From: a virus
Taxonomy: Duplodnaviria > Caudoviricetes
DNA: 62,388 bases
Virus record (IMG/VR): IMGVR_UViG_3300007734_000743
Coordinates: 1 to 62,388 of that record
Direction: 5' to 3' (one strand)
Within the stretch, counting starts at the first letter, position 1; every line of letters begins with the position of its first letter. Made by a program: the position numbers and the translations under genes. The notes beneath the pieces were generated by a model, which saw only the letters and a list, made by a program, of their open reading frames with translations, ran no database searches and was not told the DNA's origin. Positions 2,045-62,388 of this stretch are shown here, in pieces.

Positions 2045-2108
2045 ATTAACCCCACAAGGGTTCTTCAGCCCGTTTTTCCAGTTTTCACAAATGCCAAGTA
2101 TAATAGAT

Positions 2109-2480
2109 ATGAGCGAAAAAAACCTAGTTTTTCATGTTTTCGGATATGACATCATTCAGCGACCAGTTGACAGTTACCGTGATTTCATTGGGAGACAAGC
2201 TAGAACACTTCCACAAATACAAGTAGGTAAAACTGTTAGTTATTATGGGCATCAGCACACAGAGTACGGAAGATGTATAGAAAATGATATTTTTGAGACA
2301 GCAGACGAGGCTTTGGAAGTAGCTAAAACTCGTTTGGCAAAAGAAATCCAAGGGTTACAAGAACAATTAGCAGAGTGTGAAAATCACGAAATAAAAATAA
2401 AACTTTATGAAGACATTTTGAAGGAAACAGCAACCAAAGAAATTAATAGACTTGCCAAGGAGAATCACCTTTTAGGTTAA
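2109..2480 (+). CDS. Hypothetical early protein
   Basis: ATG directly after promoter repeat 4. Confidence 0.8.
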   Translation: MSEKNLVFHVFGYDIIQRPVDSYRDFIGRQARTLPQIQVGKTVSYYGHQHTEYGRCIENDIFETADEALEVAKTRLAKEIQGLQEQLAECENHEIKIKLYEDILKETATKEINRLAKENHLLG

Positions 2481-2483
2481 AGT

Positions 2484-2510
2484 ACGGGTTCAAATCTCAC
2501 TGCTCCACCA
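2484..2510 (+). pseudogene. tRNA/tmRNA 3'-end remnant (T-loop, acceptor 3' strand, ACCA)
   Basis: ACGGGTTCAAATCTCACTGCTCCACCA; no matching 5' half upstream. Confidence 0.55.
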
Positions 2511-2573
2511 ATTTCCCCATAAGGGGCATTCAGCCCGTTTTTCCAGTTTTCACAATTGCCAAGTATAATAGAT

Positions 2574-2722
2574 GTAAGACGAAAATCTTACAAGGTGCAG
2601 AAAGAGAACACACCTTGGGAAGAACGAAATTGCTTCCTGAAAGACGTAGCTCCCTCGCTGAAAGGCAGGGAGTGAACAACCTTTATATGTATATGTGTGC
2701 GAGAGTAAAATAAAACACTCGC
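2574..2722 (+). ncRNA. Putative structured ncRNA with 4-5 hairpins, most with GAAA-containing loops
   Basis: Starts at the position of the repeat where other cassettes have ATG; no ORF; stems GTAAGA/TCTTAC, AAGGTG/CACCTT, GGAAG/CTTCC, GCTCCCT/AGGGAGT, GCGAG/CTCGC. Confidence 0.7.
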
Positions 2723-2785
2723 CTTCCCCTTCTTGGGGTCTTCAGATTGTTTTTCCAGGTTTCACTGACACCAAGTATAATAGAT

Positions 2786-3103
2786 ATGAAAGAATTAAAT
2801 GGGAAAATCTACAACGAGCAAAATGAGGTAGCAGTGATTATTAGCACCAATTATGGTGCTGGTTGGTCTACTTGGAATACACAATATCCCGAATGTCTTT
2901 TTGACCCAGATTGTGTGAGGTCAATTTTGAGTGGTGAAAGAAACCACGAAAAGATTGCTCAAGAAAAGTGGGCTGATGGTTGTTGGAGTGGTGAAAACAG
3001 CGACGTTGTTTGGGTGCCAGTAGGCACAAAGTTCATCATTCATGAATACGATGGCTTGGAAACTGTTGTAGATTTAATGGATTTTAATTGGAAAGAAGCG
3101 TAA
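2786..3103 (+). CDS. Conserved viral hypothetical protein (VAV.IS..YGAGWSTWN...LFDP...IHEYDG.E)
   Basis: ATG after promoter repeat 6; motif pattern familiar from phage proteins of unknown function. Confidence 0.8.
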   Translation: MKELNGKIYNEQNEVAVIISTNYGAGWSTWNTQYPECLFDPDCVRSILSGERNHEKIAQEKWADGCWSGENSDVVWVPVGTKFIIHEYDGLETVVDLMDFNWKEA

Positions 3104-3176: not shown

Positions 3177-3401
3177 ATGACAGCACAAGACCATAATGAA
3201 AAAAATCTAGAAACCATCAAATATCAGGAATCGTACATCAATCATTTACAAGAAAAAATTGACAAACTAACATCTGTCATTGAATCTGGTAAGCCTGTGT
3301 GTCCTTATTGCAAGACAGAACTGCAGTTGGTGAGGGAAGAAAGGTATTACCTGCGAGGCAGAGGTGAAGAAGATGTATGGAAGTGCTATTGCACTGATTA
3401 A
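3177..3401 (+). CDS. Small coiled-coil plus Zn-ribbon protein
   Basis: ATG after repeat 7; CPYC...CYC. Confidence 0.75.
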   Translation: MTAQDHNEKNLETIKYQESYINHLQEKIDKLTSVIESGKPVCPYCKTELQLVREERYYLRGRGEEDVWKCYCTD

Positions 3402-3459
3402 CCCCATACACAATCTCACCACGTTTTTCCAGGTTTCACGAAGATTGGGTATAATAGAT

Positions 3460-3726
3460 ATGAGCAGACATTCAGCAACAACAAAAGATGGATTGGAAAT
3501 GATAATTGGTTACGACAGACCACTTAGTGAATACTTTATTCAGGTGTACGACGAAAACGATGAATTGATTTCCGACTGGTCATCGTCAGGTAATTCGATG
3601 ATTAAGAATCATCCTCCTATGGCTAACAGCAAGATGCTCTCAATGATTGAGCAAATCATGAGCGACGAAAGCCAGAAGCTACTGGCTCCGCAGATTAGGT
3701 TGCTCGCCTTGGATTTGCCTTTCTGA
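3460..3726 (+). CDS. Hypothetical early protein (GYDRPL..YF.QV)
   Basis: ATG after repeat 8. Confidence 0.75.
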   Translation: MSRHSATTKDGLEMIIGYDRPLSEYFIQVYDENDELISDWSSSGNSMIKNHPPMANSKMLSMIEQIMSDESQKLLAPQIRLLALDLPF

Positions 3727-3749
3727 GATTGTGTGGGAAGGGAAAAGGG

Positions 3750-3782
3750 GCACTTTTTTAAAAAGTGCTTTTAATTTTTTTT
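3750..3782 (+). terminator. Probable intrinsic terminator closing the cassette array
   Basis: GCACTTTTTT/AAAAAGTGC inverted repeat followed by a T-tract. Confidence 0.55.
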
Positions 3783-3789
3783 CCTATAT

Positions 3790-4740
3790 AGAGCATAGGG
3801 GGTACTTTGTGTGGTGAAAAGGGAACCCATAACCCCCCTGATTTTTCAAACCCGCTCACATTTATCGACAGAGGCATAGGGGGGTGGGGTAAAAATAACA
3901 CCCGGTACTATTTTCAGTCACGCATAGGTGTTTTTTTATTTGATAATAAGTCCTTAGCTGCCGTTGTGATTGCATCGTTATAAAAACTCTTATGCTCTAA
4001 ACGATGGCATATTGCACAAAGCATTATACATTTAGGTAATTCGTTTAAAATTATGCCAAATGAATAGTTTTTAATTTTGCTAAATTCAAATGTCTTTTCA
4101 ACGCCTTCGGAGTGGTGGAAATCTAAGCAAATATATTCTGACATGTCCTTAGGTTTCCACCCACACAATTCACATTTCCCGCCTTTATTCTCAACAGCAA
4201 AATGTCTATAGCCTAATGTTTTTATTTTAGTTACGCATTTTGAGCAAAAAATTCCATTTCTTGATTTTGAGAATATTTTATCACATCCAGGACACAATCT
4301 TTCTGTATAAACATAGATTCTTGAATTTTTAAATATTTGTTTTCTTTTGTTAACATCTTGATTGTATTTATTTAATATCTTTCTATATTTTGATTCACTC
4401 TCATACATATATTCTATCAATTCTTTATCATAATTATTTAGTTTTATAGGAACGCAATTGAAGCAATTAACTCTGCCTCTATAATCAAACCTTTTTCCTT
4501 TAAACTTAAATCGCTTACAGAATTCGAAGTTGCAAATTTTACATTTAGCCATAATACTATTATACAAAATTAAAATATTAACACCCTTTATTTTTAGTGA
4601 CACCCCCCTGGGGGGGTAAAAAAACGGGGGTGTGGTTTGCAGAAAGGGTATAGGCTAGAATTTTATTATGATATTTTTAAAAACAACCTAAAAAAATAAT
4701 TTTGGGTAGGCACAGGGGGAGGGTAAAAATAACACCCCCG
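3790..4740. repeat. G/C-run-rich non-coding blocks with an imperfect direct repeat GGCAYAGGGGG..GGGTAAAAATAACACCC (about 3873-3903 and 4709-4737) flanking the HNH gene
   Basis: Repeats seen directly; G/C homopolymer runs contrast with the AT-rich background. Confidence 0.7.
3914..4552 (-). CDS. HNH endonuclease (homing-type, Zn-finger)
   Basis: CELCG...CLDFHH...ELPKCIMLCAICHRLEH; N-terminal CxxC pairs; start set at ATG 4552 downstream of TGTATAAT. Confidence 0.85.
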   Translation of the reverse strand: MAKCKICNFEFCKRFKFKGKRFDYRGRVNCFNCVPIKLNNYDKELIEYMYESESKYRKILNKYNQDVNKRKQIFKNSRIYVYTERLCPGCDKIFSKSRNGIFCSKCVTKIKTLGYRHFAVENKGGKCELCGWKPKDMSEYICLDFHHSEGVEKTFEFSKIKNYSFGIILNELPKCIMLCAICHRLEHKSFYNDAITTAAKDLLSNKKTPMRD

Positions 4741-5044: not shown

Positions 5045-5142
5045 TGCGGGATAGAGCAATGGTAGCTTGTCTGGCTCATTGAGTGCCTTAAGAGACATTG
5101 AATAACCAGGAGGTTGGGGGTTCGAGTCCCTCTCCCGCTCCA
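5045..5142 (+). tRNA. tRNA-Met(CAT), initiator-like, with a 24-nt insertion (about 5080-5103) in the anticodon loop
   Basis: TGCGGGA/TCCCGCT acceptor with 1:72 mismatch, D-arm GAGC/GCTT (A11-U24), anticodon stem TCTGG/CCAGG, T-arm GGGGG-TTCGAGT-CCCTC; removing 24 nt gives loop CTCATAA. Confidence 0.8.
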
Positions 5143-5145
5143 CAT

Positions 5146-5217
5146 GCTCCGATAGTCTAGTGGTTAGGACATCGCTCTTTCAAGGCAAAGACACGGGTTC
5201 AATTCCCGTTCGGAGTA
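5146..5217 (+). tRNA. tRNA-Glu(TTC), no encoded CCA
   Basis: GCTCCGA/TCGGAGT acceptor, loop CT-TTC-AA, T-arm ACGGG-TTCAATT-CCCGT. Confidence 0.92.
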
Positions 5218-5235
5218 AATAACACACAATCTGGA

Positions 5236-6690: not shown

Positions 6691-6963
6691 ATGGAAAACG
6701 ATTCACCACCTGAATTAATTAAATCTTTATTATTTCTCAAAGAAATAGTTGAGAAGGAATATAAAGACAAGGTGGTAATTTGGAAACTAGACGATAAATA
6801 TTCTGAAGCCGCCAAAGAATATTTAAACAAAACTAGAAACACAATCTTACTTGATTCTGAATTTTACACAAGAGCCAAGTTTGCTGGAGCTTGCATTGAC
6901 CCCACAGATTGTGTTTCTTATTGTGTGGGTTATAATGGCAGGTATCCAGTAATTAAAGCATGA
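6691..6963 (+). CDS. Hypothetical protein
   Basis: Abuts neighbours in an operon. Confidence 0.7.
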   Translation: MENDSPPELIKSLLFLKEIVEKEYKDKVVIWKLDDKYSEAAKEYLNKTRNTILLDSEFYTRAKFAGACIDPTDCVSYCVGYNGRYPVIKA

Positions 6964-8276: not shown

Positions 8277-8406
8277 TCTTTCTTTCTAATTCATCTCTCA
8301 AAGCTTCAGCCTTTCCAATGTAATAAAATGTATCTGGTTTTCTTCTGTAAGCTAAATAGGCAACCACCCCTGTAAAAATTACCGCTAGTGTTAATTTTTT
8401 GCTCAT
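8242..8406 (-). CDS. Small membrane-anchored protein
   Basis: MSKKLTLAVIFTGVVAYLAYRRK; ATG overlaps the stop of the cca gene. Confidence 0.6.
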   Translation of the reverse strand: MSKKLTLAVIFTGVVAYLAYRRKPDTFYYIGKAEALRDELERKIAEKIQENVHS

Positions 8407-10004
8407 GTTGTTTCCTTTTGACTCTCTAACCATTGTAAAGCTCCAGCTCTATCACTGAATAAGCCCATGTTTTGTGCTTTCCAGGCCTCATCAAGCATGA
8501 GCTTGATAGCTGGGCCTTGAATACCCAATACTTGTTGTACATCATTTCCATCAATAAATGATGCAATTCTTTGCATTCTTTTATGAAGCCATGCAAGAGC
8601 TGATTCTCTTGATTCCATAGCTGGATTGTGCTCAAGAATAAGCTTTCTATGCTCCTTTAGAATTTCCCCAATTATTGGACCACCTTTGTTGCCAAGATAA
8701 GGCATAATGTCTCTACCTTGAAGAAGGTCTGGATGTTTGTGCTCGTAAACATTGTATTGTTTAGCCAAATCTGACATCTGCCTAGCCTCTGCTGGAAGCT
8801 CCTTAGGTAATGGTGGCCTTCCAGAGTGGTCGGCTTCAATAAGTAGCTCAAGCATTCTGATGTTTGCAGGATGAATTTTTTCAGCTAAGCTCTTGACAAA
8901 AGCTTCTTGTTTTGGTGTGTTAGAATGATGAATGTGGCTAAGGTGAAATTCTACCAAAGGAACCACTTTATCTATAATGTTTTTGGGAGCACCAATGGAT
9001 TCAAGAAAAGCTCTTGCTTTTGGCCCACCTTGTTCTTCATGTCCATGAGATGTAATTCGGTCTATTCCTTTTTTATTTATTACAGCTGTGGTATCAGGTT
9101 TAGCAAAGTCGTGAGCTAAAGCTGAGTAAATCAATACTTCTCTATCTTCTGGGCTAAGATTTTCTCTTTCAGCTATATTTGCAGCTTCGTTCATTACATG
9201 AGCTGTATGCACATCCACGTCTCCCTCAGGATGATACTCTGGCTCCTGCGGTGTGCCTCTCAGATTGTGTATTTCAGGAAAGTTTTCAGACCATCCAGTG
9301 GTGTAGAGAAAATCAAGAGCTTTTCCAGGCTCTATGCCTTTTGTGACAAGTTTTTTAAACTCCTCGTAAATTCTTTCTTTTGGAAGATGCTTGTATTCTT
9401 CTCTTATAGATTGTGCCAGCTCTGCTGTTTCTGGAGCTATGTCAAAACCAAATCGGGAAGCGAATTGCATTCCTCTAAGCACCCTCAATGGGTCTTCAGA
9501 AAAAGCCTCAGATGTGTGTCTCAGTATTTTATTTTGCAAATCTTGTCTACCATTGTATGGGTCAATTATTTCGCCAGTGATAGGGTTATATGAGATTGCG
9601 TTTATGGTAAAATCTCTTCTAGCTGCGGCTTCCTCAGGTGATAAATCACTTCTCACTTGCACATTAAAGTCTTTGTGGCCCACACCAGATTTTGAATCTA
9701 AGCGAGGTAATGAAAAATCAAAATCTGAGCCATCTTCGCCTACAAACTTAATCACACCAAATGATTGACCCACAAGGTCTGCCTTTCCATACTTAGACAG
9801 AATCTGATTTAGGTCTTCGTAGTTGACATTATATACTTCAAAATCTATGTCTTTAGGTGAAGCTCCAAGTATAGCATCTCTCACTGCTCCTCCAACAATT
9901 AAAGCTCTTCCACCTTTATTATTTATATCAGTTAAAATTGAATAAACATAACCTGGAAGTTTAATTGGGAGCTTTTGTATCTCCTGACTATACTTATACC
10001 ACAC
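8403..10004 (-). CDS. cca: tRNA nucleotidyltransferase (class II CCA-adding family) with HD domain
   Basis: VGGAVRD...KDIDFEV, RRDFTINA, EDPLRVLR, HPEGDVDVHT...HDFAKP. Confidence 0.92.
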   Translation of the reverse strand: MWYKYSQEIQKLPIKLPGYVYSILTDINNKGGRALIVGGAVRDAILGASPKDIDFEVYNVNYEDLNQILSKYGKADLVGQSFGVIKFVGEDGSDFDFSLPRLDSKSGVGHKDFNVQVRSDLSPEEAAARRDFTINAISYNPITGEIIDPYNGRQDLQNKILRHTSEAFSEDPLRVLRGMQFASRFGFDIAPETAELAQSIREEYKHLPKERIYEEFKKLVTKGIEPGKALDFLYTTGWSENFPEIHNLRGTPQEPEYHPEGDVDVHTAHVMNEAANIAERENLSPEDREVLIYSALAHDFAKPDTTAVINKKGIDRITSHGHEEQGGPKARAFLESIGAPKNIIDKVVPLVEFHLSHIHHSNTPKQEAFVKSLAEKIHPANIRMLELLIEADHSGRPPLPKELPAEARQMSDLAKQYNVYEHKHPDLLQGRDIMPYLGNKGGPIIGEILKEHRKLILEHNPAMESRESALAWLHKRMQRIASFIDGNDVQQVLGIQGPAIKLMLDEAWKAQNMGLFSDRAGALQWLESQKETT

Positions 10005-10026
10005 AATCTTAATTTACGAATGAAAA

Positions 10027-10569
10027 TTAATAAAACCTAGAATAAGGATTGCTTTTTTCATTTGACCACCAGTAAGTGCCTTTCATTTCTTGAGTTTCGT
10101 ACTCTGGAAATTTTTTTTCAAAATTGTGTGTAGATGATAAAAGATTTTGCAATATATATCTAAAAACCTGCCAAAAATCATTTTTAAGATTTATATTTAC
10201 AGAACTGATAGATTCTCTAAGGCCTGGAAAATTCACTGTTAAATCAAAAGCCTCTTCAACAATATTTTTGAAATTGTCTGGTAAAAAATTTGAATCAAAA
10301 ATATTTAAGATATTTAGAGATGCATTTTTTGCTGAGGAAAGTAATAAAGAAACATTATTATTTTCTTTAGCAATAGAATAATTATTAGACATGGCTTCAT
10401 AGATTTCTAAAGAAATTTTTTGAATAATATCTGAAATGGATGCTCCGTAAAGAGATGGCTGCATTTTATTAAGCTCTTTGTCGGATTCTATTTTAGCCTG
10501 AAACTCTAAATCATTCCATAGTTTTTGGAAAGCTTCATCTTGATTCTCCTGACTATACTTATACCACAC
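10027..10569 (-). CDS. Hypothetical protein, MWYKYSQE N-terminus
   Basis: GTG start inside the repeat; C-terminal FW.VFRY.L...L shared with 10590..11138. Confidence 0.8.
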   Translation of the reverse strand: MWYKYSQENQDEAFQKLWNDLEFQAKIESDKELNKMQPSLYGASISDIIQKISLEIYEAMSNNYSIAKENNNVSLLLSSAKNASLNILNIFDSNFLPDNFKNIVEEAFDLTVNFPGLRESISSVNINLKNDFWQVFRYILQNLLSSTHNFEKKFPEYETQEMKGTYWWSNEKSNPYSRFY

Positions 10570-10589
10570 AATCTTAATTTACGAATAAA

Positions 10590-11138
10590 TTAGATAGAAT
10601 CCTTAAAATTATTTACATCAAAATCATTAATTAATTCAGGATATTCAAAAACATTATTACCGTTTGTTAATTTTTGCTCAAGAAAATACCTAAAAAATTT
10701 CCAAAAAATTGGTAAACTCTTCAAGTTATTGCCTATGGGCATAAAGTTTGAATTAAAAGAACTTCTATGGTCAATAGGGGCACAATCTAAAATCGCTTCA
10801 TCTATTTTCGAATTTATATCATCTGGTATGTCATATCCCGTTTCTTTAAGAAACATAGCGGCATCTTTAGCAGATTTCCTAGCTGATTCTTTTACTTCAT
10901 CAAAAATTTCAACATCTGAAAAGTTGTATTTTGAAAAGGTGTACTTAGGTGGTTGATAAGAGGATATTATTCTATCTAATACATTTTTCACGTAAATGGC
11001 AATATGCTGAACTATATCTTGTGTGGAATATTTTTCATTTGTTGGGAAAATGTTTTCTTCATAAGGATTAGATTCAATTGCATCAAAATCAATATCTGGA
11101 GTAAAACCGTTATTTTCAACACAATACTTATACCACAC
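10590..11138 (-). CDS. Hypothetical protein, MWYKY N-terminus; distant paralog of 10027..10569
   Basis: S.QDI.Q.I, SAK.A, FW.FFRYFL...L and FEYPE similarity. Confidence 0.8.
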   Translation of the reverse strand: MWYKYCVENNGFTPDIDFDAIESNPYEENIFPTNEKYSTQDIVQHIAIYVKNVLDRIISSYQPPKYTFSKYNFSDVEIFDEVKESARKSAKDAAMFLKETGYDIPDDINSKIDEAILDCAPIDHRSSFNSNFMPIGNNLKSLPIFWKFFRYFLEQKLTNGNNVFEYPELINDFDVNNFKDSI

Positions 11139-11184
11139 AATCTAATTTTAAATGAAATTAGTCTGAAAACCTTTTGGTACAAAT

Positions 11185-12099
11185 TTATTGAGGTTTATAA
11201 TCTTTAAATAAATTTTGAATTTCAGCCACCACTCTTTGATATTCTTCATTACTTATTCTTTTAACAATTTCTTGGAACTTTTGTAAATCTTTCAAAGTTT
11301 TTTCTTTATCGAATGGTTTACGATATCGCTCAGGATATCTTCTATTTTGTGCTTCGTGCCATCTTTCTGACTCTGATAAATAGAAATCAGCATCGCCTTC
11401 AAAATCTCTTATTTTTGCACCATCCACCACATTGTAAAGAGGCCTTTTATTAGGTGAATTATCTTCTGAATATCCAGTTTGAAAAACATTTCCAGAGCCA
11501 AATGGGTCAAAATAGAAAAATATACTTTTAATCACATATGGCATAAAATTTAAAAGCTCTTTTTTATAATCGCCACTTTGCAATTCCCTTCTGTCTTCGG
11601 GAAGCAAAGGCTCATAAAGAACAGCATTTGCGTCCACTTTATAATCAGGGACGGCTAATTTTGGTAATTTTTCTGCATTTGATGGATTCATTTTATAGTA
11701 TAAATCATTATATTCATTAACCACCCTGGCAAAAATTCTTAACTCCATCACTCTTTCAAATGTTTGTATTAACTTGTCAAAATCAGTTCTTGTTGTTTCA
11801 ACAATTTTATCTTTATAGCTCACAGTTGACGTTGATATATCTCCTTTTTTCTTTGGATATTTTTCAATCATATTAGTTTCTGGATTTAAATATACAAATT
11901 TTTCAACACCCTGGCCAACAAGTTTTTTATTTTGAAAAGTTTCATAATCTCTATTATTTGGCCAAACACCTTTGGGAATCTTGTAATTTTCGTGACTTAA
12001 TCCCATTGCTTCAAGGGCATCTTTTACTGGTCCTTTTTGTACTTCGCCTAACATATATTCTGTTGGCTTTTCTGTCTCCTGACTATACTTATACCACAC
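11185..12099 (-). CDS. MWYKYSQE-leader protein, possible divergent protein-kinase-like fold
   Basis: GQGVEKFVY (Gly-loop-like), D....GNV and VVDG (catalytic-loop/DFG-like) in the expected order. Confidence 0.4.
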   Translation of the reverse strand: MWYKYSQETEKPTEYMLGEVQKGPVKDALEAMGLSHENYKIPKGVWPNNRDYETFQNKKLVGQGVEKFVYLNPETNMIEKYPKKKGDISTSTVSYKDKIVETTRTDFDKLIQTFERVMELRIFARVVNEYNDLYYKMNPSNAEKLPKLAVPDYKVDANAVLYEPLLPEDRRELQSGDYKKELLNFMPYVIKSIFFYFDPFGSGNVFQTGYSEDNSPNKRPLYNVVDGAKIRDFEGDADFYLSESERWHEAQNRRYPERYRKPFDKEKTLKDLQKFQEIVKRISNEEYQRVVAEIQNLFKDYKPQ

Positions 12100-12167
12100 A
12101 ATCTTAATTTAAATGAAATTAGTCTGAAAACCTTTTGAAAATATCGGGCCAAAAACGTATATTAAGT

Positions 12168-56556: not shown

Positions 56557-58659
56557 ATGGATAAGAAAAAACAACAAAAGCAAATTATTGAGCAACGCGA
56601 GAAAATGTTGCGAGATGCAGCAAAGTTAGAACAAATTTTTGCTCAACTAGACGGTGATGAAATTGAGATAGAATACAGCTCAAGATATGAAGTTCCGCCT
56701 CCTGAGCCAAAAGACCAATCTAAATACAATCCGAACAAGCTTGTAGATATTGAAACATTTATCACTCATCCATACTATCTTAATTTAAGACCTTATCCCT
56801 GGCAGATTCTAGCATTAAAATTATTCTATGCTGGCTCGGAAGGAAACACAATCTTAGAGTTTAATGAATCCAAGAAAGAAGAAGCCGTAGGTTGCTCAGA
56901 TTGTGTGTGGAAGTATGTGGTTGATAATGAAAATGAATGTGCAGAAAAAATTGAAAAAGAAGAAAATTATCAATCCGTACTAAAGCCATTAAATTCAAGG
57001 TGCTTAAAGTGCGAAAGATGTCCTTTAAAAACTAAACAAACTAGATTAAATCATGAAATAAAAATTTCAGCTGATAAAGAATCTGAGAAAATTTTAACAG
57101 ACATTCTTGAATCTGAGCCAGAAGATTTATTTCAATCTGAAATTGATTTAATAGATGAAATTCCTGATGAAGCAGTAAAGTTGCAAATCAAAAATAAATT
57201 AAGGAATAAATTTCAAGAGCTTGTTTTGATTATTGGAAGACGGGGTTCTAAGTCGTTTATGACTGTTGCCATAGCCTTGTATGAGCTTTATAGGTTATTG
57301 TCAATGAAGCATCCACAAAAAAAACTTGGTTTGCCAGATTTTCAAGAAGTGGTAATTTTGAACGTGGCTAAAAATGAAGACCAGGCAAAAGACTCAATCT
57401 TTACACCTATGAAGAATGGTGCTGTATCTTCTCCTTTCTTTCAAAAATACATTGGAGTGGACAATGCTTTAGAAATGAAATTTTTAACCGACAGAGACAT
57501 TGAAGAAAACGAAAGAAGAAAAGCTAGAGGTTTAGCCGAGCTTGATGGCACAATTATTCTGAAATGCGGCTCGTCCTCTGCATCTGGCTTGGTTGGTAAA
57601 ACCTGCTGGTGCATTATTCTAGACGAGCTTGCTGCTATGGCGGGAGATAACCCAAACTCTGGAATTGATAAAAAATTATACGATGAACTGAAACCTTCTA
57701 TCGCAACATTTGGTAAAGAAGGAAAGATTATTTGTTTGTCCAACCCTAAGGGTCCTTTTGGCCAGTTATTTACACTTTATAATACTAGACTTGAAGACAG
57801 CATGACTTTGGTGTTAAAAATACCCACATGGCAAATAAATGCGAACATTGACAAACTTTGGTTAGAAGCACAAAGAAAAAATGACCCAATCGAGTACAAC
57901 ATGCAATTTGGTGCAGAGTTTGGAAATAACTCGCAGAATCCATTTCTTTCTCCAGAAGATGTAGATTATGCCTTTGTTAATTCTACGCAAGTATCAAGAA
58001 TGGAAAAGCGTGAAACTTCTGGCGAATATTATTGCCACGTAGACCCAGCAAATAGGTCTGATTATTATTGCATAGCTGTATGTGAAGCAGTGCCCACTGG
58101 AATAAGAGATTTGAATGGTAAAATGATAAAATCTTTTAATATTGTTCACATTCATTTTTGGGCTCCTAAAAAAATGAAACAACCAGTGCCAGTTAGAGAA
58201 GTGGAAGAATATCTTTTGCAACTTCATGACAAGTTCAGATTTAAACAAATTAGTTTTGACCAATGGGGCTCAATGGAAACTATTAATAAACTTCAACAAA
58301 TGGGGCTTCCTGTAGTGCTGAGAGTGTTTAACAAAGAGTACAAAGATAAAATTTATCTAAATCTGCTTGAAGCTTTCAGAGATAAGAGGATAAGATTTTA
58401 TAAAATGTCAGGCGGTAGAGTAAAAGACTCAAGAGACCAATGGATGGAAATAAATGAGATACCTGAGGCAAAAGACCAATTTATGTTTCTCCAAAAAAAA
58501 TGGAGAAATGGAAGGCAAATTATCGAAGCACTATCAGGCTATAAAGATGACATTCCAGATGCTGTTTCGGCTGTTATTTATGAAGCAGATGCAGAAATGA
58601 TGATGGCAAGAGCTTTACCAAGAGCAAGGGTGGCATATACAGGCAGAGGCTTAAGGTAA
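56557..58659 (+). CDS. terL: Terminase large subunit
   Basis: PYPWQ, IGRRGSKS, ILDELA, LSNP, HVDPA, SFDQW, DDIPDA. Confidence 0.92.
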   Translation: MDKKKQQKQIIEQREKMLRDAAKLEQIFAQLDGDEIEIEYSSRYEVPPPEPKDQSKYNPNKLVDIETFITHPYYLNLRPYPWQILALKLFYAGSEGNTILEFNESKKEEAVGCSDCVWKYVVDNENECAEKIEKEENYQSVLKPLNSRCLKCERCPLKTKQTRLNHEIKISADKESEKILTDILESEPEDLFQSEIDLIDEIPDEAVKLQIKNKLRNKFQELVLIIGRRGSKSFMTVAIALYELYRLLSMKHPQKKLGLPDFQEVVILNVAKNEDQAKDSIFTPMKNGAVSSPFFQKYIGVDNALEMKFLTDRDIEENERRKARGLAELDGTIILKCGSSSASGLVGKTCWCIILDELAAMAGDNPNSGIDKKLYDELKPSIATFGKEGKIICLSNPKGPFGQLFTLYNTRLEDSMTLVLKIPTWQINANIDKLWLEAQRKNDPIEYNMQFGAEFGNNSQNPFLSPEDVDYAFVNSTQVSRMEKRETSGEYYCHVDPANRSDYYCIAVCEAVPTGIRDLNGKMIKSFNIVHIHFWAPKKMKQPVPVREVEEYLLQLHDKFRFKQISFDQWGSMETINKLQQMGLPVVLRVFNKEYKDKIYLNLLEAFRDKRIRFYKMSGGRVKDSRDQWMEINEIPEAKDQFMFLQKKWRNGRQIIEALSGYKDDIPDAVSAVIYEADAEMMMARALPRARVAYTGRGLR

Positions 58660-59714: not shown

Positions 59715-60151
59715 AAAATGTTTTGAAAGCAATTGATTTGTTAGAACAAAATGGATGCTATAGGCTTGCCGATTTATTTCAAGACCAACTTATAAAAACT
59801 GCTGCATGGCCTTATAATCTTTCAGCTATTGATGAGCTGCCTCTATCGGCAAGGTTTTACACTTGGCAAAGAAATGAACAAGATTTCAATGAATTTGATA
59901 GAAAATTTTATAAAGAATTGTATTATAGATTACCAGATTATAGAAATCTTAAAACAGATTCAGATGAAAAACTTAACATGGAAGGTGAAATGCATGGTGA
60001 AGACCCCACACCTGGTCCAGCTTATGTAGACCCTGTTTACATGGTTAATTCACCTTCAATGAATGGAAGTCTTGACTACTTTACTTGGGACCAAGCTCAC
60101 GATATCAATCAAGGGCCAGAATATTGGAAAAATCTCAAACCAAGAGGATAA
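59711..60151 (+). CDS. Hypothetical late protein with LE..G...LAD.F...KTA motif
   Basis: N-terminal motif shared with other putative late genes. Confidence 0.7.
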   Translation: MKNVLKAIDLLEQNGCYRLADLFQDQLIKTAAWPYNLSAIDELPLSARFYTWQRNEQDFNEFDRKFYKELYYRLPDYRNLKTDSDEKLNMEGEMHGEDPTPGPAYVDPVYMVNSPSMNGSLDYFTWDQAHDINQGPEYWKNLKPRG

Positions 60152-60178
60152 AAACAAAACAAAGGAGAAAAATAATTT

Positions 60179-60625
60179 ATGCCACAGCCTATCGTACCAA
60201 TTCATAAACAAGAAAGTATGCCAATTACATTTGGAGAATCTATGCAGCCTGAATTTCAACTTTCTGAGCTACAATCAATTTTACTTCAAACTACAGCTTC
60301 TGCCAAAAGCAACACAAGATATTCTATAAATACGATTGCAGCTCTTCAAGATATTGATAAAAATACAGATTTTGTGGTCACAGCAGTAACAGATTCAAAC
60401 GAAAGGTATTGCTCTGTTCCTACTGAAATTGACGAAAATACAGTTTTAGCTTTGAAGGCAGAAGGCTTGATTTCAGGATACGGCAGGTCGGTAAAAATTA
60501 CTGAAAGGGGAAGAACTGCTCTTAGAGATGCTTATCTTTCAACAAAAAATAGTTTAAAAGAAAACAGAACATCTGATAAATTTGATTTTCGTTCATTTTC
60601 AAGAATTGCCAAAAAAGGAGAATAA
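60179..60625 (+). CDS. Late protein with a winged-helix-like segment
   Basis: LKAEGLI...VKITERGR..L. Confidence 0.6.
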   Translation: MPQPIVPIHKQESMPITFGESMQPEFQLSELQSILLQTTASAKSNTRYSINTIAALQDIDKNTDFVVTAVTDSNERYCSVPTEIDENTVLALKAEGLISGYGRSVKITERGRTALRDAYLSTKNSLKENRTSDKFDFRSFSRIAKKGE

Positions 60626-62388
60626 TGTTTAATAAAAGCGTTTTAGAATTACTTGCCAAGCAAGCACATAAGGACACAAACAGCAAGAAAACATCTGACA
60701 TATTTTTCTCTATGCTTAAAATTGCTCAAAGCGATAGTATGTATGATGAAATGCTTGATTTGCCTAATAAAAGAATTCGAAGCTTGCTGTCAGAGCCTGG
60801 TAAATACGAATACAAAACTCAAGACATAAGAAATGAATTACAAAAAAATCTAAATATCATGAGTGCTTTTGTTATTTCCAAAGCAAAAAATGAAGAGATT
60901 TCTGAAGCAGTGGGTGAGTTTATGCCTGTTAAATTCATCGAAAGTGCTTTAAACCAATTGGAAAAATACAACGGTGCAAATGCAAATGATTTTTCACTTA
61001 AAGGTCTTTTGAATGGAGCTTTAAGTTCAGCTACAAGACTTGTGGAACAAAGAAAACAAAAACAACAATCAAAAGGTGAATCTTCTTTAGAAATGTCGGG
61101 CGTTGAGGAAGGTGATACGTTCAAAGAACGGACAATAGACGAAAGTGCTCTAGCTAGGTTCGATGCACTTTTTGAAGAAGGGGCAGAGGGTGATGTGGAA
61201 GATAAAGAAACCGCTCTTGAACAAGCTTTAAATATTGTTTTAAGAAACGAAGAGTATGACATTTTAAGCGTCTTCGTTGAGGGAATTCTTTACCCAGCAT
61301 TACAGGAATTAAAACAAAGATTATCTGGTGAAATTACATCAAGTGTAATTGAAAAAGTAAAACCATTAATTACTCAAGGCATGAGTCAGCAACAAATTCA
61401 AAATCTTGTTTCAAAATTTGTTGAAGAAGATTCTGTACAAGCTCAAGCTGACTTTGATAAATTTTATACAGATACATTTAAGTTCATTAGAGACAATTAC
61501 GGGGTGCCAAAACGTAAATCTGGTCAAAGAGGACAAAAACAAGAGTTTAGCTTGAGAGAAGTGCAGGATGAAGTAATAAGACGAATACAAGCTTTGGACT
61601 TGGATAACATGGTTGATTACATCTTCAAGCAAAACTTTTATAAATTGCCAAAATGGGCTACTGGAGAAAATCAAGAATTAACCAAGGAAATAATTAAGCA
61701 AATTATTAAATCTGAAGTTATCATTAATGCTAAACAAGATATGAAAGTAAGCTTACCTGGAATTAAAAATAGACCGCAAGGAGGAAGAGCAAAGCTTTCC
61801 CAGATTGATATTGTTGAGCACCTAATGATGAAGAGAATTAAAAATCTTACAGAGGATGAAGCTGAACAATCTAAATTGATTTCTGAAACATTAAAACGCT
61901 TAGGGTCAAAAGTAGACCCTGAAACAAAACAAGTGATTCATAAACCAAAAGACATGACACAATATCGTCTTTTCCAACACACCACTCCAATGATGATGGC
62001 AGCTTACTTTCAAAAAGCTTCCGAAGAATATGGTGAGAAGTTTTCAGAATTATCTGATGAGGAGCAACAAGACGTAATTGAAAAAGTACAATCGGCTATT
62101 TACAGAGGCGGAAAACTTCCTTACACATTTGATGTAGGGGCAAATGAGTTGAGGGCAACTCCTTATAGTTCGGTTGGAGAGGATGCAGAAAATATTACCA
62201 GGCAAAATGTTCAAGAAAGACTTCAGCAAGCTATGGGAATCAGAGGTGGAAGGCTTCAAGGAGGTGGTTTCATGAAATCAATGATGCCAATTCAGCCTAA
62301 GATTACCCCTCCAACACAATCTGATAAACCAAAACCAGAAAAACCAATAGAGCCCGTTTCTTATTCTGGTGACGATTTTGCTTCAAGC
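60625..62388 (+). CDS. Large protein, 5' part only (at least 588 aa; absent from the ORF track because no stop is reached)
   Basis: AGGAG ribosome-binding site; ATG overlaps the upstream TAA; frame open to the window end (MFNKSVLELLAKQAH...MLKIAQS...). Confidence 0.85.
   Translation, partial: MFNKSVLELLAKQAHKDTNSKKTSDIFFSMLKIAQSDSMYDEMLDLPNKRIRSLLSEPGKYEYKTQDIRNELQKNLNIMSAFVISKAKNEEISEAVGEFMPVKFIESALNQLEKYNGANANDFSLKGLLNGALSSATRLVEQRKQKQQSKGESSLEMSGVEEGDTFKERTIDESALARFDALFEEGAEGDVEDKETALEQALNIVLRNEEYDILSVFVEGILYPALQELKQRLSGEITSSVIEKVKPLITQGMSQQQIQNLVSKFVEEDSVQAQADFDKFYTDTFKFIRDNYGVPKRKSGQRGQKQEFSLREVQDEVIRRIQALDLDNMVDYIFKQNFYKLPKWATGENQELTKEIIKQIIKSEVIINAKQDMKVSLPGIKNRPQGGRAKLSQIDIVEHLMMKRIKNLTEDEAEQSKLISETLKRLGSKVDPETKQVIHKPKDMTQYRLFQHTTPMMMAAYFQKASEEYGEKFSELSDEEQQDVIEKVQSAIYRGGKLPYTFDVGANELRATPYSSVGEDAENITRQNVQERLQQAMGIRGGRLQGGGFMKSMMPIQPKITPPTQSDKPKPEKPIEPVSYSGDDFASS

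Follow-up and report, generated by a model that had tools for sequence, protein, structure and literature searches.

The window analyzed in this study, a 62,388-base stretch of DNA that makes up a whole IMG/VR virus record, contains within an array of early promoters a real gene for a small RNA of ~110–175 nt, which is conserved, structured, strand-specific, non-coding, and modular. The RNA constitutes a new family in the already established class of small phage RNAs, and its setting, a slot among apparently leaderless cassettes, is unusual. Much less has been mapped out about the small RNAs of phages than about their proteins, and the few for which a role is known (put RNA, RNA anti-CRISPRs, and pseudo-ToxI) have each uncovered a novel means of controlling or disarming the host. 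The present candidate is a clean one, having a defined promoter and a covarying fold and being kept while its neighbors are swapped. At its length, the RNA is a testable unit for pull-downs and for transcription or defense assays, and a covariance model derived from it can be run over metagenomes.

Results

Source phage and early-promoter array

The window is rated 17% complete and encodes a DnaE-type polymerase, RecJ, ribonucleotide reductase, a RecA-like protein, a DnaB-like helicase, a CCA-adding enzyme, and a large terminase (56557–58659); we read it as a piece of the genome of an uncultured freshwater jumbo phage. Its best relative is a 347,392-base record rated 99% complete (G001), whose CCA enzyme and terminase are 78% and 75% identical, respectively, to those of the window. 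No close cultured relative was found in the GenBank phage collection, where the DnaE identity stayed below 37% and the matches at the DNA level were limited to one repeat protein and one tRNA; searches of viral contigs with the flanking proteins, and with the exact window promoter pattern, likewise recovered no relative. The metagenome DNA runs containing 75–94% of the words sampled from window 2100–3100 were of viral, river, and lake-water sources. The first full cassette (240–944) encodes an RlaP-type nucleotidyltransferase, a member of an RNA-repair-associated family (E 1.2e-18), which together with the gene for the CCA-adding enzyme (8403–10004) points to a heavy investment of the phage in RNA/tRNA maintenance.

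The promoter repeat, GTTTTTCCA-N2-TNTCAC-N9-GTATAATAGAT, has eight exact matches in the window, all of them on the + strand, vs zero expected from 100 shuffles. The eight elements are located between 203 and 3459 and consist of TTTCCA, 18 nt, and TATAAT, followed by AGAT; in seven of the eight cassettes, an ATG comes exactly 4 nt after TATAAT. The exception is the fifth copy (2537–2573), which is followed by GTA, starting with G2574, in place of ATG. Its −35-like TTTCCA (2540–2545), 18-nt spacer, and TATAAT (2564–2569) form the cassette promoter of the RNA (2540–2569, + strand). The original prediction had stated that an intact promoter repeat precedes the region and that the first stem begins at the base where other cassettes have their ATG, and both statements agree with the array, the repeat being one of the eight exact matches and G2574 occupying the position at which seven of the eight cassettes have A. 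G001 contains 77 copies of the promoter element, all on the + strand and mostly in its first 68 kb; under a separate, stricter pattern that gives 74 elements, 52 are followed by ATG at the same spacing, 4 by GTG, 1 by TTG, and 6 by GTA. A looser promoter pattern gave arrays in G001 only, the six other loci (in five records) being single chance matches.

The fixed spacing from TATAAT suggests that transcription starts at the base concerned and, by this positional argument, that the cassettes of the array are mostly leaderless early mRNAs. For a sigma-70 promoter, a start only four bases downstream of TATAAT would be close, and we know of no description of leaderless early mRNAs on such a scale; a literature search found no description of the promoter array. 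The lineage, one of uncultured freshwater jumbo phages, has up to 77 near-identical early promoters, most of them positioned so that the mRNA would begin at AUG, and the array looks like a natural system in which the first three transcript bases decide between mRNA and RNA. The order of cassettes varies among related phages, and in G001 the same promoter also precedes tRNA genes and a second ORF-less unit of 421 nt (60019–60439; 246–666 in L009). This unit, with an early promoter in front, begins with GUAAGA and folds with z −2.86; it matches no Rfam family and has no equivalent in the window. Also in G001, five early promoters are crowded into ~730 nt (67105–67831), three of the gaps being only 32–58 nt long and geneless. 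Just beyond the end of the window array, an HNH endonuclease gene (3914–4552, − strand) is flanked by G-rich GGGGGTAAAAATAACACCC-like repeats.

Fold and strand of the RNA

Transcription is presumed to start on the + strand at G2574, the fifth base after TATAAT. RNAfold of 2574–2722 gave −39.3 kcal/mol (z −3.24), none of 200 shuffles being as good, and reproduced the four back-to-back hairpins and the terminal hairpin, with their loops, that had been described originally. Hairpin 1 (2574–2591), with a 6-bp stem flush with the 5′ end, has the GNRA-type loop CGAAAA and reads GAAC-GAAA-GUUC in G001. Hairpin 2 (2592–2616) consists of the invariant stem AAGGUG/CACCUU and a variable loop of 9–13 nt (CAGAAAGAGAACA in the window), and hairpin 3 (2617–2638) of a 6-bp stem with one G–U pair and a conserved 10-nt loop, AACGRAAUUG (AACGAAAUUG in the window); hairpins 1 to 3 abut without a spacer. 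The single-stranded linker that follows (2639–2648) has the conserved GAAAnnnGUA and, with U2638 included, gives the extra UGAAAG that had been noticed from the sequence and is conserved in the alignments. Hairpin 4 (2649–2673), formed by 7 + 3 bp with a bulged C, an inner GCU/GGC stem, and the loop GAAA (variants GAGA and AAGA), contains two G–U pairs, and only its outer five pairs are retained in G001.

Downstream of hairpin 4, an AU-rich unpaired spacer (2674–2698) leads to the terminal hairpin GCGAG/CUCGC (2699–2722) in the RNAfold structure. In 5 of the 14 distinct sequences described below, the loop of the terminal hairpin has 37 extra nt; copy L062 has two changes in the 3′ arm, and a different, 13-bp hairpin is found at that place in G001. 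The AU-rich spacer is not conserved in G001, for which reason an origin or primer RNA at this stretch was dropped from consideration. Further downstream, an inter-cassette element (2726–2754) composed of a CCCC-UUCUU-GGGG hairpin (2726–2738) and a T run overlapping the next −35 (2750–2754) is a possible 3′ end or terminator of the RNA. All these parts are given for the + strand.

The minus strand of 2574–2722 also folds (z −3.44), and energy alone therefore does not assign the strand. Three of the 28 pairs in the window copy are G–U, and one variant carries a U–A to U–G change in hairpin 1; because G–U pairs would be A–C on the opposite strand, the pairs fit only the + strand, with which the orientation of the promoter agrees. 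The G001 copy folds alone into hairpins 1, 3, and 4 and the 13-bp terminal hairpin (z = −3.09), hairpin 2 being absent from its minimum-energy fold. The GC content had been described as above background, which holds only mildly in comparison with the adjoining DNA (0.42–0.447 in windows 2476–2775 vs 0.33–0.39 alongside) and does not single out the region, since 0.45–0.47 is reached also at 3300–3750.

Homologues and covariation

A search pattern made from the parts common to the window and G001 copies gave 18 metagenome loci, 15 of which are real copies and 3 chance matches. There are thus 17 copies in all (the window, G001, and 15 metagenome contigs), corresponding to 14 distinct sequences, 13 of the window type (W-clade) and 1 of the G001 type. 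The G001 copy (62166–62266) begins with the same GUAAGA and has the hairpins in the same order. A covariance model built from the W-clade only matched this copy over its full length (55.3 bits, E 1.6e-8) and detected no other copy either in the window or in 1–72 kb of G001, and model R2, built from both clades, scored it at 75.9 bits as the sole match in the whole G001 genome. R2 had no match in the terminase-related G002–G005, which are 8–46% complete fragments without the early array and hence give no information on presence or absence of the RNA. Weak extra matches of model R1 to L054 and L058 (E 3.8 and 7.4, respectively) were treated as chance. Prokaryotic genome contigs, scanned with a pattern that extended past the putative CRISPR-type repeat considered below and was thus blind to CRISPR arrays, gave no copy and four chance matches, of which only L074 reached 10.8 bits (E 0.35), inside an apparent coding region. 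A further scan of viral records gave no copy and two chance matches in coding-like DNA without an R2 match.

In the alignment fitted to the covariance model, 219 of 219 stem cells pair and five pairs are changed on both sides, a result reached by none of 500 shuffles; controls with slid partners were 40–50% paired and had 0–1 double-changed pairs. Compensatory changes among homologues, set beforehand as a test of the prediction, were thus found, two in hairpin 1 (A–U to G–C and G–C to A–U) and three in hairpin 3. All five stem from one split, that between the W-clade and G001, and may therefore reflect few independent events, although they make a strong pattern in that none of the stem changes disrupts a pair. 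RNAalifold, run on a structure-free MAFFT alignment, returned the same four hairpins and the same five compensatory pairs; a sixth pair that it reported is due to the misaligned hairpin 4 of G001.

The conserved core comprises 111–112 positions. Both clades have kept the hairpin-1 loop (CGAAA across clades, a clean GAAA tetraloop in G001), the entire stem sequence of hairpin 2, the hairpin-3 loop (AACGAAAUUG in the W-clade vs AACGGAAUUG in G001, GNRA-like in both), the linker UGAAAnnnGUAG, and the outer five pairs of hairpin 4. The hairpin-2 loop, which reads CAGAAAGAGAACA, AAGAAAAAGAUA, or ACGACUCUG, is not kept between clades, and neither is that of hairpin 4 (GAAA, GAGA, or AAGA in the W-clade; UGUCAAAU in G001). 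Half of the GAAA motifs noted originally are consequently not kept, and the idea that a repeated GAAA loop serves as the functional motif in the manner of CsrB/RsmZ is not supported, only the loops of hairpins 1 and 3 being conserved. Within the W-clade, the core is 93.8–100% identical, vs 69–97% at the DNA level for neighbor genes in the same contig pairs. Between the clades, it is 67% identical, below the neighbor genes (73–94% at the DNA level), the loss falling mainly on the hairpin-2 and hairpin-4 loops.

These data also bear on whether the cassette is merely decaying or empty, that is, a former gene or leader with chance or leftover hairpins and no function. Cassettes are indeed shuffled and lost freely, and the copies fall into two clades only; moreover, a G001 protein cassette has a leader sharing the 5′ GTA...UACAAGGU of the RNA, from which we conclude that leader and RNA have recombined. 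A functionless remnant is nevertheless very improbable in view of the complete pairing of the stem cells with five double changes, the W-clade core being more conserved than the adjoining genes, and the preservation of promoter and spacing in all copies in view.

Coding potential

The ATG-TAA noted originally is present at 2572–2577, and no start-codon ORF longer than 39 aa overlaps 2574–2722 on the + strand, in accordance with the original prediction. The overlapping + strand frames are TTG 2556..2675 (39 aa), whose start is upstream of the presumed +1, and TTG 2615..2713 (32 aa). We consider it extremely improbable that the region encodes a small peptide from GTG 2595 (26 codons) or TTG 2615 (32 codons). 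Both frames exist in the window copy, but the hairpin-2 loop is 13 nt long in the window, 12 nt in five distinct W-clade sequences, and 9 nt in G001, so that these indels of 1 and 4 nt shift the GTG-2595 frame as well as both minus-strand frames; the 26-codon frame is accordingly not coding, as had been expected. The TTG-2615 frame stays in register between hairpins 2 and 4, where the compensatory changes swap residues (GR to RG and LP to PL, read by eye), as would be expected under RNA pairing but not under selection on a protein, and it then enters the variable 3′ part with the 37-nt insertion. On direct reading, neither GTG 2595 nor TTG 2615 is preceded by a spaced Shine-Dalgarno sequence. 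Hairpin 4 shows further, longer indels among the copies, and no reading frame is kept among the homologues of the RNA cassette.

Genomic neighbors and expression

All 15 homologous copies with upstream DNA visible retain the promoter and its four-base spacing, copy L056 being cut within the promoter and therefore outside this count. The cassette has at least 7 different upstream neighbors in the 15 contigs with one in view, and at least 8 different downstream neighbors. As judged from these sequence comparisons, the RNA cassette is a module under selection, kept while its neighbors are swapped. In the 16 copies with downstream DNA visible, the next early promoter follows directly after the RNA cassette.

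This arrangement is relevant to a possible cis action of the RNA as a put-like processive antiterminator, whose nascent hairpins would bind their own RNA polymerase and carry it through the inter-cassette hairpin/T-run elements and past the array end. The put RNAs, which resemble one another in sequence, act in cis on the beta′ zinc-binding domain of RNA polymerase and suppress termination. [quoted passage not shown] The RNA described here resembles put in being an ORF-less folded RNA directly after an early promoter, with adjacent stem-loops (hairpins 1 to 3 abut), and the downstream cassettes have terminator-like ends. It differs, in a comparison by description only, in having 4–5 hairpins rather than two and 110–175 nt rather than ~70 nt, as well as its own 3′ hairpins and a following promoter. 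As the next early promoter comes directly after the cassette, read-through would be unneeded for expression of the neighbors; these neighbors vary between contigs, and the unit is provided with its own terminal hairpins. We therefore regard cis-acting antitermination as unlikely. A lambda nut-like reading was also dropped, the hairpin-1 GAAAA loop being present but no boxA-like element being seen by eye and no N-like protein being known here.

Two metatranscriptome runs of one study contain contigs of 200 nt (2546–2745) and 173 nt (2544–2716), which share two base changes with some metagenome variants. The contigs hint that the RNA was present in the samples, DNA carry-over being possible; they stop at the repeat borders, their first base lying ~28 nt before the presumed +1 where the promoter repeat begins, and thus show neither start nor strand. 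The flanking genes (2100–2507 and 2814–3100) have no contig cover in runs X19 and X20, and X18 covers only 2361–2500, this cover being that of assembled contigs, in which gaps give no measure of the abundance of the RNA relative to its neighbors.

Some tRNA-like sequences are found around the cassette. In L060, a W-clade variant, an insertion of ~150 nt directly after the RNA carries an odd tRNA-like gene (1015–1100, − strand; ‘tRNA-???’ in ARAGORN) and also a second copy of the terminal-hairpin end. Between the upstream gene and the RNA promoter, window ~2483–2510 (~1500–1535 in L009) resembles the T-arm and acceptor 3′ end of a tRNA/tmRNA, ends with CCACCA, and is conserved in G001; its Rfam tmRNA match has E 0.68, and no complete tRNA/tmRNA was found at this stretch.

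Comparison with known RNA families and systems

In an 8-kb scan, Rfam 15 gave nothing in 2574–2722. The best results of sensitive Rfam scans were E 0.69 with 16.9 bits (cut-off 45) for a 201-nt stretch and E 0.59 with 12.5 bits (cut-off 70) for a 191-nt stretch containing the G001 copy. ARAGORN and Rfam called tRNA/tmRNA only at 5045–5218 and none in the RNA, and a literature search found no description of this RNA. With no Rfam match, conservation among homologues, and no frame kept, the proposal of an undescribed, promoter-driven, non-coding structured RNA is upheld. As for the tRNA-Met(CAU)-like gene at 5045–5140, it has a 24-nt insertion in the anticodon loop relative to the intact G001 gene, scores 45.7 bits with Rfam tRNA with a 28-nt insert, and is not called by ARAGORN; it either contains a mini-intron or is disrupted.

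T4 species 1 and 2, RNA C, and RNA D are phage small stable RNAs of unknown role. Like these and the ncRNAs reported for the jumbo phage PA5oct (PMC7318152), the present RNA would be a short, stable-looking non-coding transcript of a large lytic phage, here with tRNA genes behind the same promoters; unlike them, it has a slot in an apparently leaderless early array, and no sequence or Rfam link connects it to them. Similarly to the CsrB/RsmZ sponges, it consists of consecutive short hairpins whose loops could be displayed to a protein, but no motif recurs in all loops, only two of the four loops are conserved, and GGA is confined to a single loop in a single clade. In common with ToxI and phage pseudo-ToxI, it is a non-coding RNA carried by a phage and may be directed against a host protein. 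Type III antitoxin RNAs consist of tandem direct repeats with a unit of ~36 nt, whereas Tandem Repeats Finder detected no tandem repeat units here (0 rows in 2450–2850), and the RNA is present in a single copy per genome.

A hairpin with a short tail ending in GAAAG/GAAAC is the shape of many class 1 CRISPR repeats, for the hairpin of which a 10-nt loop is large. The RNA might be an RNA anti-CRISPR, a special case of a decoy, in which hairpin 3 with UGAAAG/UGAAAC mimics the CRISPR repeat of the host and thereby sequesters a Cas6-type or effector protein. Hairpin 3 with its GAAAG/GAAAC-type tail resembles this shape, and its stem covaries between the clades, as if each tracked the repeat of its own host. 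The RNA is furthermore solitary, intergenic, small, non-coding, and immediately downstream of a promoter, among likely takeover genes, as are the solitary repeat units in PMC10651486, according to which the RacrIF1 construct tested comprised 161 nt from the predicted start. However, no Rfam CRISPR-DR family matches the window or the G001 copy, the conserved region is far longer than one repeat, and the loop of hairpin 3 is large compared with those of repeat hairpins. We regard this identity as decidedly unlikely. Solitary repeat units found in IMG/VR are listed in the supplementary tables of PMC10651486 and might bear on it.

Discussion

In the proposed mode of action, the cassette promoter would start transcription at G2574, and the RNA gene would extend from 2574 to about 2722–2750 as a self-standing module in the early-promoter array. 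Lacking an initial AUG, unlike its leaderless neighbors, the transcript would not be translated. Hairpin 1 would seal the 5′ end, and one or two hairpins would close the 3′ end, a build that is expected to favor stability. The conserved surface, to which the GNRA loop of hairpin 1, the stem of hairpin 2, the loop AACGRAAUUG of hairpin 3, and the linker UGAAAnnnGUAG contribute, is a putative protein-binding site, and the RNA may act in trans in host takeover by modulating a host or defense protein or serving as a decoy for it.

We tentatively favor, at slightly less than an even chance, such a stable, trans-acting, protein-binding RNA used in host takeover, for which we infer the start, the early timing, the stability, the trans action, and the partner alike. 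This preference follows from the RNA having its own promoter and 3′ hairpins, a sealed 5′ end, and conserved loops and linker on covarying stems, and from its independence of neighbors. GNRA loops are common structural devices that need not bind protein, and any compact RNA may carry two.

Base-pairing sRNAs typically display short, conserved single-stranded stretches on a scaffold that is stable, and the RNA may instead be a regulator of this type, the unpaired conserved parts (hairpin-3 loop, linker, and 3′ tail) of which would pair with host or phage mRNAs. Such stretches and scaffold are present, and the RNA would be expressed from a strong promoter. In the search for complementarity, which covered phage sequence only, no complementary stretch of ≥13 nt was found elsewhere in the window, but two 12-mers, vs roughly one by chance according to our own estimate, both of them in paired or variable parts; the long complementary matches in G001 represent the repeated inter-cassette element only. 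In addition, the RNA does not end in a clean hairpin with a U run immediately behind it. Base pairing with mRNAs appears quite unlikely.

With regard to host takeover, we further speculate that the phage deploys the RNA when infection begins, as a counter-measure made of RNA alone, being either a decoy of a host defense or RNA-processing protein (e.g., an uncatalogued CRISPR-repeat mimic) or a factor-free antiterminator reprogramming the host polymerase, a possible but rather doubtful proposal. If it is true, the RNA would represent a new family directly involved in host takeover and would travel as a mobile module in an array of dozens of early genes that appear to be leaderless.

Apart from the early promoter, a 10-nt motif, CAGATTGTGT (complement ACACAATCTG), recurs before genes on both strands of the window (e.g., 3727–3740, 6905–6937, 9987–12137, 54363, and 56897). 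The motif is found also inside the early-promoter spacers of G001, and it may represent a second promoter class or a regulator site.
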